64,000 nt of DNA from Dehalococcoidia bacterium (lineage in GTDB: Bacteria > Chloroflexota > Dehalococcoidia > UBA2979). Each line of letters opens with the position of its first letter. Position 1 is the stretch's first letter. The notes under the pieces are model-generated. The model ran no database searches. It saw nothing but the letters and a program-made list of their open reading frames with translations, and had not been told where the DNA came from. The position numbers and the translations under genes are program-made. The stretch spans positions 2,182,066 through 2,246,065 of the forward strand of contig OZ242017.1 of assembly GCA_965204835.1 (NCBI GenBank), in the 5' to 3' direction. Of the stretch, positions 17,788 to 60,674 are shown piece after piece.

Positions 17788-18237
17788 GTGGCGCTGGAGA
17801 TCGGCCAGGAAGCACCTGACTTCACGTTGGTAAACGAGGACAACGAGCAGGTGACGCTCTCCGAACTGCGCGGGTCGCCAGTCGTCCTCGTCTTCTACAC
17901 CTTCGACTTCTCCGGCATCTGCACCAACGAGCTGTGCGAGATCCGCGACGACTACTCGAGCTGGGCGGACGCCGGCGCGACGATCTTCGGGATCAGCCGC
18001 GACAGCCGCTTCTCGCACGCCGCCTTCAAGGAGGCGGAGAACCTCGACTACTCCCTCCTCGCGGACCTCAAGGGCGAGGTGGCGCAGGCCTACGGCACAT
18101 GGAACGAGGCCCTCGGCGCAGCGGAGCGCCTGACGGTCGTCGTGGGCGCCGACGGCAACATCGCCTACTCGAAGCAGAATCCGATCCCCGAAGCGCGCGA
18201 CCACTCGGACGTGCTCGCAGCCATCCAGGGCTCGTAG
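17788..18237 (+). CDS. bcp: peroxiredoxin (Bcp/AhpE-type, AhpC/TSA family)
   Basis: Peroxidatic Cys motif FDFSGICTNELC. GTG 17788 after an AGGAG RBS. Confidence 0.9.
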   Translation: MALEIGQEAPDFTLVNEDNEQVTLSELRGSPVVLVFYTFDFSGICTNELCEIRDDYSSWADAGATIFGISRDSRFSHAAFKEAENLDYSLLADLKGEVAQAYGTWNEALGAAERLTVVVGADGNIAYSKQNPIPEARDHSDVLAAIQGS

Positions 18238-18294
18238 CGGCGGGGGAGCGATCGGCGAGGCAGGTCACGAGAAGCGGGGGGTGACGCGCTCGTG

Positions 18295-18639
18295 ATGGAA
18301 GAAAAGCTCGTCCACACGCCGGAAGGCGAGTATTGCCCGATCCGGGCGACGCTCTCCATCCTCGGTCAGAAGTGGGTGCCCCACATCGTCTATGAGCTCG
18401 GCGGCGGGAAGCGCCGCTTCAACGAGCTCGCGATCCGCATCGGCGGCTGCAACGCCCGCACCCTGCGCGACCGCCTCGAGGAGCTCGAGGACGTCGGCAT
18501 CGTCCGCCGCAAGATCGTGAACAAGATGCCGCCGTGGGTGGAGTACGACCTCACCCCGCGCGGCCGCGAACTCCATGACGCGATGCGCCCGATCCAGCAC
18601 TGGGGAGCCCGCTACCTCTCGGCGGCCTCGCCCGCCTGA
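18295..18639 (+). CDS. HxlR-family (MarR-like) transcriptional regulator
   Basis: CPIRATLSILGQKW...RFNEL... wHTH typical of the HxlR/DUF24 family. Confidence 0.85.
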   Translation: MEEKLVHTPEGEYCPIRATLSILGQKWVPHIVYELGGGKRRFNELAIRIGGCNARTLRDRLEELEDVGIVRRKIVNKMPPWVEYDLTPRGRELHDAMRPIQHWGARYLSAASPA

Positions 18640-18652
18640 CCGCGCACCGGCA

Positions 18653-19063
18653 GTGACCATCGAGCTCGACTTCCACGGCCTCGCCCGGGGCGACGAGTTC
18701 GTGATCCCCTCCATCACCTTCGACGCCTCGGACGTGCGCGCCTACCTCGACGCCACCGGCGAGCCCGCCGAGCGCTGGGAGGGCGTGACGCCGCCGCTCG
18801 CGGCCGGCGCGTGGGCGCTCGGCGCGCTCATGGAGCACGTCCCGCTGCCTGGTGGGGCGCTGCACGCGGGGCAGGAGTTCGAGTTCCTGCGCGCGCTGAC
18901 GCCCGGCGAAACCCTCGAAGCCTCCGTGACCGTCGCGCAGCGCTTGGAGCGCCGAGGCACGCTGCTGCTCGCGCTCGCCATCGAGCTACGCACCGAGGCG
19001 GACGGCGAGGTGGTGCTGCGCGGGCGCTCCACCGTCGCCGCGCCCGCCGGGGAGGCCTCGTGA
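18653..19063 (+). CDS. hotdog-fold protein, HadA-like non-catalytic partner of a MaoC dehydratase
   Basis: About 136-aa hotdog-like protein lacking the hydratase motif. GTG 18653. GTGA overlap with the next gene. Confidence 0.6.
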   Translation: MTIELDFHGLARGDEFVIPSITFDASDVRAYLDATGEPAERWEGVTPPLAAGAWALGALMEHVPLPGGALHAGQEFEFLRALTPGETLEASVTVAQRLERRGTLLLALAIELRTEADGEVVLRGRSTVAAPAGEAS

Positions 19064-19452
19064 CGACACCGCCCGAGGTCGCGCCGGTGACCCGCCTGAT
19101 CGACCAGGACCGCGTGAGCCGCTACTCGGACGCGGCGCGCGACCCCAACCCGATCCACACCGATGCCGACTTCGCGGCAACCACCGACTTCGGCCGCCCC
19201 ATCGCCCACGGCATGCTCGTGCTCGCCCTCGTCTCCGAGGCGATGAGCGCGACGTTCGGGCGTCGGTGGGCGGAGAGCGGAGCCCTCAAGGTGCGCTGGC
19301 GCGCCCCGGCCATCCAGCCCGTCGAGGTGACCGCGACGGCGGAGCCTCGAGGCGTCACGGACGGCGTCGCGACCTACGCCGTGCAGTGCGCGACGGCCGA
19401 CGGCGCGGTGCTGCTCACGGGTACCGCTTCGGTTGCGGTGCGCGAGGCGTGA
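19060..19452 (+). CDS. MaoC-like (R)-specific enoyl-CoA hydratase/dehydratase (HadB-like)
   Basis: Hydratase motif DPNPIHTDADFAATTDFGRPIAHGM. Translationally coupled to flanking genes by GTGA overlaps. Confidence 0.75.
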   Translation: MTTPPEVAPVTRLIDQDRVSRYSDAARDPNPIHTDADFAATTDFGRPIAHGMLVLALVSEAMSATFGRRWAESGALKVRWRAPAIQPVEVTATAEPRGVTDGVATYAVQCATADGAVLLTGTASVAVREA

Positions 19453-20096
19453 TCAGTCGAGATGACCTCGTGGCCGCCCTCTCGGCGCTCGCAGGGGAGC
19501 GCCCCGTCTTCCATTCTGAGGCGGACTTCCAGCACTCACTTGCATGGACGATTCGCGACAGGCACCCGGGAGCCGCTATGCGGCTCGAGCGGCCTGTCCC
19601 GATGTCCGGGAATCGCGGTCATATCGACATCTGGCTGGGGAGAGACCAGCTAGGGACGGCAATCGAGTTGAAGTTCGGGACTCGGAGATCCAACTTCAGC
19701 ATCGATGGAGATGAATACGACCTCCGCGACGGTGCTCCAGACTGGTTTCGGTACGATGTGTGGAAAGATGTCTCGCGCGTTGAGAGCCTCATCGAGCAGG
19801 GCAACGCGGAGTCTGGTTTCGTTATCGCCCTTACCAATGACCATCTGAACTGGAGCGAAGCCAGTCCAGAGACGATCTCTGCCGCTTTCAGCATGCACGA
19901 GGGGAACGACGTTCACGGCTCGCTCGGGTGGAGCTCACGGGCAGGAAGCGGGAGCACAAGCGGCCGCGAATCAGCGATTGAACTCGGCGGCCGGTATGTC
20001 ACTCGGTGGAGCGACTACTCGCTACCTGCCGAGGGTTCGGGAGGTGAGTTCCGCTACTTGCTCCTCGATGTACGGGATGCGCTCAAGCCGCTATAG
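19449..20096 (+). CDS. PD-(D/E)xK nuclease-like hypothetical protein (low-GC gene)
   Basis: GTG 19449 overlaps the preceding stop. GC is about 57%, against about 72% for flanking DNA. It carries an apparent E...D...ExK core (LERPV...GHIDIWLG...AIELKFG). No confident family assignment. Confidence 0.5.
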   Translation: MISRDDLVAALSALAGERPVFHSEADFQHSLAWTIRDRHPGAAMRLERPVPMSGNRGHIDIWLGRDQLGTAIELKFGTRRSNFSIDGDEYDLRDGAPDWFRYDVWKDVSRVESLIEQGNAESGFVIALTNDHLNWSEASPETISAAFSMHEGNDVHGSLGWSSRAGSGSTSGRESAIELGGRYVTRWSDYSLPAEGSGGEFRYLLLDVRDALKPL

Positions 20097-20276
20097 GCCG
20101 CGTTTCGCCTTGATTGACTCCCAGGAGACGCTGTCCTCGGCCTTGAGGCGCTCCTGGGAGATGCGCACATCCTCGGCGTCTTCGAGGGCTTCCAGTTCGG
20201 TGACGGTGAGTTCCTCCACGTCCCGGGAGTTCTCGTCAGGCGACTCGGGATCGCGGGGGTGATCTGCGGGTGACAT
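20091..20276 (-). CDS. small hypothetical protein with antitoxin-like acidic helical C-terminus (61 aa)
   Basis: ORF 10 bp downstream of alkA on the same strand. ...ELEALEDAEDVRISQERLKAEDSVSWESIKAKRGL resembles Phd/YefM- or TIGR02574-type antitoxin C-termini. Could be spurious. Confidence 0.3.
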   Translation of the reverse strand: MSPADHPRDPESPDENSRDVEELTVTELEALEDAEDVRISQERLKAEDSVSWESIKAKRGL

Positions 20277-20285
20277 GGGCTCGCC

Positions 20286-20924
20286 CTATGCCTCGGGCGT
20301 GATGGTCGACACCGCACGCCACATGTACCACGACCCCACCGACCGGTACGGCGCCCACGGCGCGCCGATCTCGCGGGCGCGGCCCGGCGTCGGCGTCTCG
20401 GGCAGGCCGTATGCCGCCTGCATCCCCTTCCGCACGCCGAGGTCCCCGACCGGCAGCACGTCCGGCCGGCCCAGCTCGGACATGAGGAACATGTGCGCCG
20501 TCCACTCGCCGACGCCCTTCACCGCGGTCAGCCGCTCGATCACCTCGGCGTCGCCGAGGTCGGGCATCGCCTCGAAGTTGAGGGTGCCGTCCACGCAGTG
20601 CTGCGCGAGGTCGCGGAGGTAGCCCGCCTTCTGACGCGAGACGCCCGCGCCGCGGAACGCGTCGTCGGTCGTGGCGAGGATGTCGAGTGGGTCGGGCGTG
20701 CGCTCCTCGTCGCCGTAGAGGGCGAAGAAGCGGCGCTGGATGGCGCGCGCCGCCGCGCCGGCAAGCTGCTGGAACATGATCGAGCGCACCACCGAGGCGT
20801 ACGGGTCATTGCCCGGGCGCGGCTGGTACGGGCCGTGCTCCGCGATCAGCGCGCCGACGACGGGGTCGGCCTCGCGCAGGTGCGCGTAGGCGGAGCGGGC
20901 GGAGAAGCGCAGCCGGTTTGGCAT
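20286..20924 (-). CDS. alkA: DNA-3-methyladenine glycosylase II (HhH-GPD family)
   Basis: HhH-GPD motif region (…LTAVKGVGEWTAHMFLMSELGRPDVLPVGDLGVRKG…) with catalytic Asp. Confidence 0.85.
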   Translation of the reverse strand: MPNRLRFSARSAYAHLREADPVVGALIAEHGPYQPRPGNDPYASVVRSIMFQQLAGAAARAIQRRFFALYGDEERTPDPLDILATTDDAFRGAGVSRQKAGYLRDLAQHCVDGTLNFEAMPDLGDAEVIERLTAVKGVGEWTAHMFLMSELGRPDVLPVGDLGVRKGMQAAYGLPETPTPGRAREIGAPWAPYRSVGSWYMWRAVSTITPEA

Positions 20925-54354: not shown

Positions 54355-54723
54355 TTGCCGTTGAGGCTCTTCCATGAGGGCGCGCGGTTCTCGTTGTTGC
54401 TCTACGAACGGAGCGGTGGGGACAGCCCGTTCACCGAGTTTCTACGAGGGCTGACCCGCAAGGATCGAGCGCGGCTCACGGGACTCCTCGAGCGGGTGGC
54501 GGATCACGGTCCGCTATACAGTCCGGAGCGATCCGTCCCGCTCACCGGACAGGACTTCCTGGAGTTCAAGTCCGGGCAGCAGCGGATATTCTGGTGCTAT
54601 GCCCCGGGCAGGCGGATCGTGCTGATGCATGGCTTCACGAAGAAGTCGAATCAGACACCGCGGAGGGAACTACGCACCGGAGCGCGGCTCCGCGAGGAAG
54701 TCCGGGACGAGATAGGCGAGTGA
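54355..54723 (+). CDS. type II toxin, RelE/ParE superfamily (HigB/Gp49-like)
   Basis: …ERSGGDSPFTEFLRGL… matches the Gp49/HigB-like N-terminal motif. The only available in-frame start is TTG 54355 with a TAGGA RBS. Followed by an XRE antitoxin. Confidence 0.7.
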   Translation: MPLRLFHEGARFSLLLYERSGGDSPFTEFLRGLTRKDRARLTGLLERVADHGPLYSPERSVPLTGQDFLEFKSGQQRIFWCYAPGRRIVLMHGFTKKSNQTPRRELRTGARLREEVRDEIGE

Positions 54724-54733
54724 CGAGGCACCC

Positions 54734-55069
54734 ATGGTGAAGCTGCAGGACTGGATCGACGAGTTCCAGGGCGATCCCGACTACGAGTTCACGAAGGTCG
54801 CCATCGACATCGGCGAGCAGATCGTGGCGCGCATGGAGGAGCGAGGGATGACGCAGGCCGACCTCGCGCGGGCCATGGGCGTCAGCCGGGCGCGCGTGAG
54901 CCAGATCCTGCGAGGCAACGACAACCTCACGCTTAAGAGCATCGTCGCCGTCGCCATCGCCCTCGACTGCCGCGTCGAGATGCTGCTGCAGCCCGTCCCG
55001 GCGACTGAACCGGACCAGCAGGCTCAGCCGTCGACCAAGGAGGCCCGGCCGCTCGCCCGCGCAACGTAG
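54734..55069 (+). CDS. HigA-like antitoxin, XRE-family HTH
   Basis: HTH MTQADLARAMGVSRARVSQILRG. Immediately downstream of the toxin gene. Confidence 0.8.
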   Translation: MVKLQDWIDEFQGDPDYEFTKVAIDIGEQIVARMEERGMTQADLARAMGVSRARVSQILRGNDNLTLKSIVAVAIALDCRVEMLLQPVPATEPDQQAQPSTKEARPLARAT

Positions 55070-60063: not shown

Positions 60064-60369
60064 TCAATCGCCCGCGAGGCCGGCCGTGCCCGCGGCCTGC
60101 AGACGGAGGCCCAGCGCGCGCATGACCTTGAGGATTGTCCCGAACTCCGGATTGCCATCGGCGGACAGGGATCGATACAGGCTCTCCCGGGCCAACCCTG
60201 CCTGGCGGGCCACGCTCGTCATTCGCCGGGCACGGGCGATGTCCCCGAGTACCGCGAGAATGAGGGATAGATCACCGTCCTCAAGGGCGGCGTTCAGGTA
60301 CGCGACCATGTCCTCCTCGGTCTTGAGGTGCTCGGCCGGATCCCATGGCCTGGTCTGTGTCTCAGCCAT
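60064..60369 (-). CDS. addiction-module antidote protein, HigA family (HTH)
   Basis: …LSLILAVLGDIARARRMTSVARQAGLARESLYRSL… typical TIGR02684-like antidote. Downstream of a RelE-family toxin. Confidence 0.8.
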   Translation of the reverse strand: MAETQTRPWDPAEHLKTEEDMVAYLNAALEDGDLSLILAVLGDIARARRMTSVARQAGLARESLYRSLSADGNPEFGTILKVMRALGLRLQAAGTAGLAGD

Positions 60370-60383
60370 GCGCGTACTGCCTC

Positions 60384-60674
60384 CTACAGCCCCCGAGCTA
60401 ATTCCAATGCTCTTCGTACGTCGCGGGGCTGGCTGTCCTTGTCTCCGCCAGCCAGGAGCACGACGACCGCCTCGCCACGCTGGAGGTAGTACACACGGTA
60501 CCCCGGTCCGTAATCGATGCGGAGTTCAGAGACTCCGCCGCCGATCGGCCTGACGTCGCCGGGATTACCCAGTGAGAGCCGCCGGATGCGTGTGTCGATC
60601 CGCGCCTTCGCGTTCCGATCCCGGAGCCGCCTGAACCAGCGAGCGTAAACCTCCGTCTGCCGTATCTCGATCAC
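60384..60674 (-). CDS. type II toxin, RelE/ParE family (addiction-module killer protein)
   Basis: …RIRRLSLGNPGDVRPIGGGVSELRIDYGPGYRVYY… GTG start 60674. Confidence 0.85.
   Translation of the reverse strand: MIEIRQTEVYARWFRRLRDRNAKARIDTRIRRLSLGNPGDVRPIGGGVSELRIDYGPGYRVYYLQRGEAVVVLLAGGDKDSQPRDVRRALELARGL

Follow-up and report, generated by a model that had tools for sequence, protein, structure and literature searches.

Gene order and composition of the locus

Two small convergent genes lie between a hotdog-dehydratase operon and a DNA glycosylase gene in a 64-kb stretch of Dehalococcoidia (phylum Chloroflexota) DNA, which is referred to here as the window and whose positions serve as coordinates throughout. 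One encodes a 215-amino-acid (aa) protein with a predicted nuclease fold – its gene is called the nuclease gene below – and the other a 61-aa antitoxin-like protein. A first-pass annotation suggested that the pair might be a nuclease toxin or defence effector with a small neutraliser. Here, we compare the locus with its counterparts in other genomes (L-numbers denote the compared loci and P-numbers proteins) and ask whether the two genes are partners or unrelated neighbours. The locus comprises the following features.

17788-18237, + strand: AhpC/TSA peroxiredoxin gene, upstream context (Pfam scan, synteny)
18292-18639, + strand: HxlR regulator gene, upstream context (Pfam scan, synteny)
18653-19063, + strand: hotdog-fold gene, first of the operon, 136 aa (FAS1_DH_region, PF13452, E = 4.8e-6)
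19060-19452, + strand: MaoC-like dehydratase gene, 130 aa (MaoC_dehydratas, PF01575, E = 6e-17)
19449-20096, + strand: nuclease gene (FAM), 215 aa, predicted stand-alone PD-(D/E)xK protein in a low-GC hypervariable cassette
20091-20096: palindrome CTATAG, containing the Leu-stop of both convergent open reading frames (ORFs), read from the sequence
20091-20276, - strand: 61-aa gene (AT61), orphan, antitoxin-like, 17 homologues
20286-20924, - strand: HhH-GPD DNA glycosylase gene, 212 aa (PF00730, E = 1.4e-16), a conserved syntenic neighbour outside the cassette

The 215-aa ORF and the two stop/start overlaps first reported for it are present: the TGA of the hotdog gene overlaps the GTG start of the MaoC gene, and the nuclease-gene GTG (19449-19451) overlaps the MaoC-gene TGA (19450-19452), giving a GTGA junction in each case. 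The proposed translational coupling of the nuclease gene into the hotdog operon is borne out by conservation, the MaoC-nuclease GTGA junction being kept in seven of nine syntenic relatives, and in five loci (L009, L010, L011, L013, and L022) the nuclease TGA similarly overlaps the GTG of a thioesterase gene directly downstream. Other details need adjusting. The convergent 61-aa ORF is where it was placed, although it begins 9 nt rather than 10 bp past the glycosylase stop; the glycosylase belongs to the HhH-GPD superfamily, with 81-97% aa identity between the window and its relatives, but the label 'alkA' is over-specific; and the 'HadAB-like' pair is hotdog/MaoC but not HadAB, with scores far under the NCBIfam equivalog cut-offs for HadA (19 bits against 180) and HadB (25 bits against 203). 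At the level of sequence, only a generic hotdog/MaoC assignment holds for this pair.

The low-GC island is readily seen. The nuclease ORF has a GC content of 0.61, with 200-nt windows as low as 0.56 between 19600 and 19900, compared with 0.715 for the whole window and 0.72-0.76 in the 200-nt windows that flank the ORF; GC this low occurs in just 0.27% of 648-nt windows across the 64 kb. GC content at third codon positions (GC3) is 0.70 in the nuclease gene and 0.92-0.96 in the adjoining genes, and each of the eight syntenic genomes has a lower GC3 in the nuclease gene than in its flanks. A scan for sigma-70 promoters and intrinsic terminators between 17600 and 21100 returned no sites, and the nuclease gene shows no promoter-like signal belonging to it, such a scan being uninformative for a high-GC Chloroflexota genome.

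Fold and allelic variation of the 215-aa protein

The first-pass annotation had read an E...D...ExK arrangement in the 215-aa protein and proposed a structure search as a check. An AlphaFold (AF2) model built on the homologue alignment has a mean predicted local distance difference test score (pLDDT) of 92 and a predicted template modelling score (pTM) of 0.91, and contains the alpha-beta-beta-beta-alpha-beta core fold of restriction endonucleases. Searches with this model returned the nuclease fold and not a non-nuclease family: nearly all matches in three libraries are PD-(D/E)xK nucleases, with Foldseek searches of PDB and BFVD in concordance. Among 24 aligned homologues, E24, E47, D60, E73, L74, and K75 are invariant, as are R110, E112, W161, W187, and R202, the last three reflecting conservation of the beta-rich C-terminal half as well. 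The active-site positions map as follows.

19518-19520, + strand: codon of E24, the invariant acidic residue in HSEADFQ, helix alpha-1 (model helix 24-38)
19587-19589, + strand: codon of E47, invariant, in RLE, strand beta-1
19626-19628, + strand: codon of D60 in hIDIW, strand beta-2 (model strand 55-65), the 'D' of PD-(D/E)xK
19665-19673, + strand: codons of E73-L74-K75 in IELK, strand beta-3 (model strand 68-77), the '(D/E)xK' motif

Because E24, E47, D60, E73, and K75 are invariant across all 24 homologues, the motif is not a chance match. The weak Pfam matches found among the homologues are to restriction endonuclease families alone (DpnII-MboI in 5 of 24, HSDR_N_2, and TnsA_N); the 215-aa protein itself has no match in Pfam, NCBIfam, PADLOC, or PHROGs scans, and sequence and profile searches against PDB gave chance-level matches only. 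The predicted structure and the invariant residues support its assignment as a restriction-endonuclease-fold (PD-(D/E)xK) nuclease, and the 215-aa family is an undescribed branch of this well-known superfamily.

In a clade of high-GC Dehalococcoidia metagenome-assembled genomes the nuclease gene invariably lies directly after MaoC, and yet its state differs among very close relatives, as three haplotypes illustrate.

Window haplotype: the 215-aa nuclease allele
L097 haplotype: flanks with 95-100% DNA identity to the window; a 222-aa allele encoding a 56%-identical protein
L098 haplotype: flanks with 96-97% protein identity to the window; nuclease gene absent, in the order MaoC stop, GC hairpin, antitoxin gene

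The nuclease gene is thus a population-level variable cassette: near-identical genomes have the window allele, one that is 56% identical to it, or no copy at all. Other comparisons give the same picture. The MaoC, AhpC, and HhH-GPD proteins of L007 and L015 are 97% identical, whereas their nuclease proteins share just 54% identity, and the window nuclease is nearest to the L007 allele (65%), yet the window flanks are nearest to L008 (88-93%). When DNA identity is plotted along the window against L008 and L097, or along L007 against L015, values of 0.9-1.0 in the flanks fall to 0.45-0.68 in the ORF interior; the drop coincides with that interior, has sharp borders, and is followed by recovery, with a second, separate drop at the ParE/antitoxin segment described below.

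Substitution rates, estimated by the Nei-Gojobori method and with GltD values excluded because of out-of-register tblastn segment coordinates, indicate that the alleles are old. The synonymous rate (dS) is 0.9-1.3 for the nuclease gene and 0.1-0.57 for the flanks, a three- to nine-fold elevation depending on the pair, and the ratio of nonsynonymous to synonymous rates (dN/dS) of 0.22-0.47 shows the gene to be under purifying selection. Raised dS together with low dN/dS points to old functional alleles swapped by recombination; accelerated protein evolution in situ was considered as a source of the divergence and rejected, since dS is raised equally with dN. Loss also occurs. Where the nuclease gene is gone from L002-L004, an in-frame remnant (GTG AGC GCG / GCG CTG GGG GTG TCG TGA) encodes V-S-A-A-L-G-V-S-stop, the first three and last five nuclease codons (L002 6880-7110; L003 and L004 1060-1180), and these eight codons retain GTGA junctions with MaoC before them and the thioesterase gene after them. 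As the first and last codons remain in frame, the absence is a secondary deletion. The earlier suggestion of horizontal acquisition therefore stands insofar as the gene is accessory and exchanged, but not as a recent one-off event, because the same slot is occupied across the Dehalococcoidia clade and its alleles are replaced.

The empty L098 site has a 31-nt gap (1760-1790) between the convergent MaoC and antitoxin genes, holding the inverted repeat AGCGGC-N8-GCCGCT, absent from the window, which is possibly a bidirectional terminator. Upstream of the operon, an HxlR gene lies between the AhpC and hotdog genes in the window (18292-18639) and in L008, and in L001/L007, L010, L011, and L013 an HTH_3 (Xre) regulator gene is found upstream of AhpC instead (L001 4177-4464).

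Three further low-GC islands occur in the window. One (54355-55069, + strand) encodes a Gp49-like toxin (54355-54723) and an HTH_3 antitoxin (54734-55069), another (60064-60674, - strand) a Gp49-like toxin (60384-60674) and an HI1420-downstream 'antidote' (60064-60369), and a low-GC patch at 1162-1904 includes a 96-aa ORF (1622-1912, + strand) with no Pfam match. Low GC in this genome marks small accessory modules.

The 61-aa gene and its relation to the nuclease gene

The 61-aa ORF, whose conservation had been in question, has 17 homologues, almost all of them also of 61 aa; the N-terminus, acidic or proline-rich, varies among them, and the C-terminus is conserved as EALEDAEDVRIS-ERLK-EDSVSWESIKAKHGL. 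In the window protein the N-terminal 24 residues are acidic or proline-rich and disordered, and are followed by conserved C-terminal helices with EALEDAEDVRIS-ERLK-EDSVSWESIKAK; the AF2 model likewise leaves the first 24 residues disordered and places helices at 25-47 and 52-59, with nothing resembling a DNA-binding fold. The reported resemblance of the C-terminus to Phd/YefM/TIGR02574-type antitoxins was not recovered: neither the window protein nor any of the 17 homologues matches Phd/YefM, ParD, or PF09720/TIGR02574 in Pfam or NCBIfam, searches of PDB by sequence and profile gave chance-level matches only, and the sole antitoxin signal is a weak match to PHROG 2268 'antitoxin' (E = 0.06).

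Gene order is more informative. In relatives (L001/L007, L002, L003, L004, L006, and L015) which share the backbone ZnuABC, GltD-like, AhpC/TSA, hotdog, MaoC ... HhH-GPD, an 87-aa gene follows the 61-aa gene on the same strand after a gap of 13-16 nt; it matches PF05016 (ParE_toxin) and a PHROG RelE-like toxin (8e-19), and the two form a canonical AT61-ParE operon. Relatives also have a 4HBT thioesterase gene that separates the nuclease gene from ParE. Both the 4HBT and ParE genes have been lost from the window, L008, and L097, and the nuclease and antitoxin genes therefore stand tail to tail, the CTATAG palindrome of the window being the junction that the loss produced. No ParE is detected in the window by tblastn; a surviving ParE pseudogene between the ORFs was considered and rejected, as the ORFs overlap and the tblastn search was empty.

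The combinations of the three genes across the compared loci (L010 is unscored, its contig ending short of this position) are as follows.

Nuclease, 61-aa, and ParE genes: L007 and L015
Nuclease and 61-aa genes only: the window, L008, L097, and L009
Nuclease gene alone: L011, L022, and about 70 unrelated genomes
61-aa and ParE genes without the nuclease gene: L002-L004
61-aa gene alone, beside MaoC: L098 and L099

These distributions bear directly on the proposal that the 215-aa protein is a nuclease toxin or defence effector and the 61-aa protein its dedicated neutraliser, forming a toxin-antitoxin-like pair. It is easy to see why the proposal was made: the genes overlap by 6 nt, adjoin in L008 and L097 too, and both lie within a low-GC, fast-diverging stretch, and the 61-aa protein has the look of a minimal helical antitoxin. 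However, each gene occurs without the other – the 61-aa gene in L002-L004, L098, and L099, and the nuclease gene in L011, L022, and the unrelated genomes – and the 61-aa gene pairs with ParE in relatives. Moreover, the two genes are convergent with a 3' overlap and do not form a co-directional operon, and ParE and 4HBT, where present, put about 1.3 kb between them. The co-occurrence data largely refute the neutraliser-pair model, which we regard as highly improbable.

Two observations on the antitoxin-like proteins are recorded here. In L013 (9163-9898, - strand), the ORF that comes after a 68-aa antitoxin-like gene is not ParE; it encodes 174 aa with a hydrophobic segment at the N-terminus, matches nothing in Pfam, and may have replaced the toxin. 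P0122 (105 aa) and P0132 (L099 3141-3413, 90 aa) each contain two copies of the conserved C-terminal unit, which is about 40 aa long.

Possible role of the nuclease and comparison with known systems

The nuclease family is sizeable, widespread but sparse; Pfam, NCBIfam, and PADLOC lack a model for it, and none of its members has a solved structure. A word-indexed search detected 669 homologues of the 215-aa protein, and an exhaustive profile search 3,836 cluster representatives (1,412 with E <= 1e-30); the 185,579 species genomes contain 371 family loci, in Chloroflexota, Acidobacteriota, Planctomycetota, Bacillota, Deinococcota, Actinomycetota, and one Nitrosopumilus, with several copies per genome in some cases (L054 and L063, L031 and L071). 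Some members are fused to a GIY-YIG nuclease, to DUF429, or to DUF4062 plus HATPase_c_4, and others have the small domains DUF7669 or DUF7662 attached at either end. A literature search on these two domains found no papers; our guess is that they are winged-helix-like DNA-binding domains, recalling the winged helix-turn-helix (wHTH) plus Mrr_cat layout. In Bacillota, tandem-duplicated forms are fused in one protein of 412-480 aa (L045 7998-9338; P0145-P0148; L091 5001-6309), and their existence is the reason for supposing that the single-domain form would act as a dimer. In P0119/L091 the second copy is separated as a 100-aa ORF. In P0145 the substitutions E24Q and K75R in the second copy point to a pseudo-dimer that has a putative single active site.

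Genomic context varies widely. The 140 nearest neighbours in 70 non-syntenic genomes fall into 109 Pfam families, none recurring more than five times and with no methyltransferase or antitoxin pattern among them, and a conserved partner gene across phyla was sought by all-vs-all neighbour clustering and a Pfam scan of the same 140 neighbours and rejected. In the window, the neighbourhood holds no methyltransferase gene adjoining the nuclease gene. There are nonetheless loci in which the family keeps suggestive company: in L062 a member has a DUF1156 methyltransferase on one side and an SNF2 helicase on the other, a DUF7669-fused member ends a DUF1156 / SNF2 / 329-aa operon in L089, and in L087 a member is divergent from a neighbouring methyltransferase and helicase. 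Separately, two unrelated contigs encode a 329-330-aa protein directly upstream of the family gene (L089 4015-5004 and L041 6997-7986). The two proteins are 79% identical to each other and have no Pfam or PADLOC match, the end of the L089 gene overlaps the family gene start by 4 nt, and the protein may be a partner within that nuclease subfamily.

We favour the interpretation that two unrelated accessory elements lie tail to tail at this locus, a swappable nuclease cassette and an antitoxin orphaned by loss of the rest of its ParE module, and assign it a probability of about 0.6. The nuclease gene is slotted into the hotdog-dehydratase operon through the 4-nt GTGA stop/start overlaps, and would presumably be expressed at a low level by operon read-through and coupling. 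Its product is predicted to be a Mg2+-dependent, homodimeric DNA endonuclease, acting as a restriction- or defence-type effector that lacks a cognate methyltransferase and is, for example, modification-dependent or otherwise able to recognise foreign DNA. Deletion of the toxin gene (87 aa) together with its 4HBT neighbour in this lineage would have left the orphan antitoxin with its stop overlapping that of the nuclease gene. We infer a defence/restriction-type role, possibly modification-dependent, because of the fusions, the DUF1156/SNF2 loci, the strain-level turnover of alleles, and the lack of a methyltransferase partner.

Several observations weigh against this interpretation. The family is found on just 4 of 2.9 million viral contigs (carriage by phages was rejected on this count), PADLOC and PHROGs contain no model for it, and association with defence islands is exceptional (about 5 of 80 family loci), with the immediate neighbours in the 70 non-syntenic genomes being mostly housekeeping genes, together with two integrases and two ResIII helicases. 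No modified-base-reading domain was recognised in the nuclease, and we know of no family member with known activity, substrate, or phenotype. As to the second element, its identity as the antitoxin of a ParE/RelE-type module is deduced from gene order and the protein fits no curated family; intact orphan copies also persist in the window, L008, L097-L099, and L009, which suggests that they have a role without an adjacent toxin.

In a more far-reaching version, the family would represent a new kind of restriction or defence nuclease, solitary and methyltransferase-independent, borne on a promoter-less cassette coupled into housekeeping operons, whose specificity alleles are maintained at one locus under balancing or diversifying selection and are shuffled between strains by homologous recombination, with the orphan antitoxin providing stand-alone immunity to ParE; we offer it tentatively, as rather doubtful. 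The variability of the cassette could alternatively reflect selfish behaviour, the protein being a free-standing homing-type endonuclease that cuts the empty or heterologous MaoC/4HBT junction, is copied in by repair, and passes through a cycle of invasion, decay, and reinvasion. Presence/absence and allele replacement at one fixed site whose breakpoints coincide with the ends of the ORF, the in-frame deletion scar in L002-L004, the lack of a conserved partner gene, and the multi-copy genomes would all fit such behaviour. We nevertheless consider homing unlikely, since the alleles found there are ancient (dS ~1) and not near-identical recent copies, the flanks show no co-conversion tract, and the family is rare on viral contigs and occupies about 70 unrelated chromosomal contexts; moreover, dN/dS of 0.2-0.5 in every lineage favours lasting benefit to the host over a decay cycle.

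Another alternative is a housekeeping repair or recombination nuclease (a resolvase, or Vsr- or NucS-like enzyme) working with the HhH-GPD glycosylase, or a role tied to the hotdog/thioesterase operon. Such a function would account for the stable position within one operon throughout the Dehalococcoidia clade, the translational coupling to both neighbours, the purifying selection, and the mostly housekeeping neighbours in other genomes. It is hard to reconcile with the dispensability of the gene – absent from the closest relative, L098, as well as from L002-L004 and L099 – or with alleles that are 44% divergent in protein within near-identical backgrounds, unlike core repair genes. With only 371 loci among the species genomes surveyed, and linkage to HhH-GPD or hotdog genes nil outside the clade, we think a repair role quite improbable. 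The chance adjacency of an exchangeable nuclease cassette and an unrelated orphan antitoxin remains the interpretation that we prefer.

The superfamily is already known, and what is new is the unnamed family within it. With its intact PD-(D/E)xK site, this sizeable family is a candidate for defence-system catalogues and enzyme discovery, because its members are sometimes found in loci related to bacteriophage exclusion (BREX) systems or fused to conflict-system domains. The locus is also a clear small case of gene-level allele exchange, with 56%-identical proteins in backgrounds of 95-100% DNA identity, and it carries a caution for annotation: contact with a nuclease gene does not by itself make a small antitoxin-like ORF its partner, and here synteny ties the ORF to a deleted toxin.

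Several known systems resemble parts of the locus. By structure, the nearest relatives of the nuclease are SSO0001/Cas4-like proteins, the BamHI/OkrAI/BglII class of type IIP enzymes, and DUF820 (Uma2), and by weak profile matches REase_DpnII-MboI (PF18742) and HSDR_N_2 (PF13588). It shares with PD-(D/E)xK enzymes the core fold and the invariant helix-1 acidic residue, strand-2 D, and strand-3 ExK, and at about 200-220 aa is of the size of small type IIP enzymes; it differs from the known families in having no significant profile match (Pfam, NCBIfam, PDB) and an extra beta-rich C-terminal half. PaaA2-ParE2 is the textbook example of a minimal antitoxin lacking a DNA-binding domain. The relatives of the window resemble it in having the gene for an acidic 61-aa protein upstream of ParE, with a predicted disordered N-terminus, two helices, and no ribbon-helix-helix or helix-turn-helix domain, but the toxin gene is gone from the window, and the 61-aa protein has no sequence similarity to PaaA2, ParD, Phd/YefM, or PF09720.

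In type II restriction-modification, unlike here, a methyltransferase gene is adjacent. Type IV restriction enzymes such as Mrr, which have a wHTH plus Mrr_cat layout, are modification-dependent and methyltransferase-independent. The window nuclease resembles them in being solitary, patchily distributed, and variable at the strain level, and in the small extra domain of some members, although no Mrr_cat or other type IV profile and no SRA/EVE/YTH reader was found in it. A 2026 survey of BREX-related type-1 systems found that Snf2-helicase loci without a nuclease of their own often bear a separate PD-(D/E)xK nuclease (PMC12839542). While no such methyltransferase, helicase, or ATPase gene lies near the window gene, and about 75 of 80 family loci are outside such loci, the family members in L062 and L089, and in part that in L087, fit the BREX-related type-1 / Hma arrangement of DUF499 ATPase, DUF1156 methyltransferase, and Snf2 helicase (PMC12839542).

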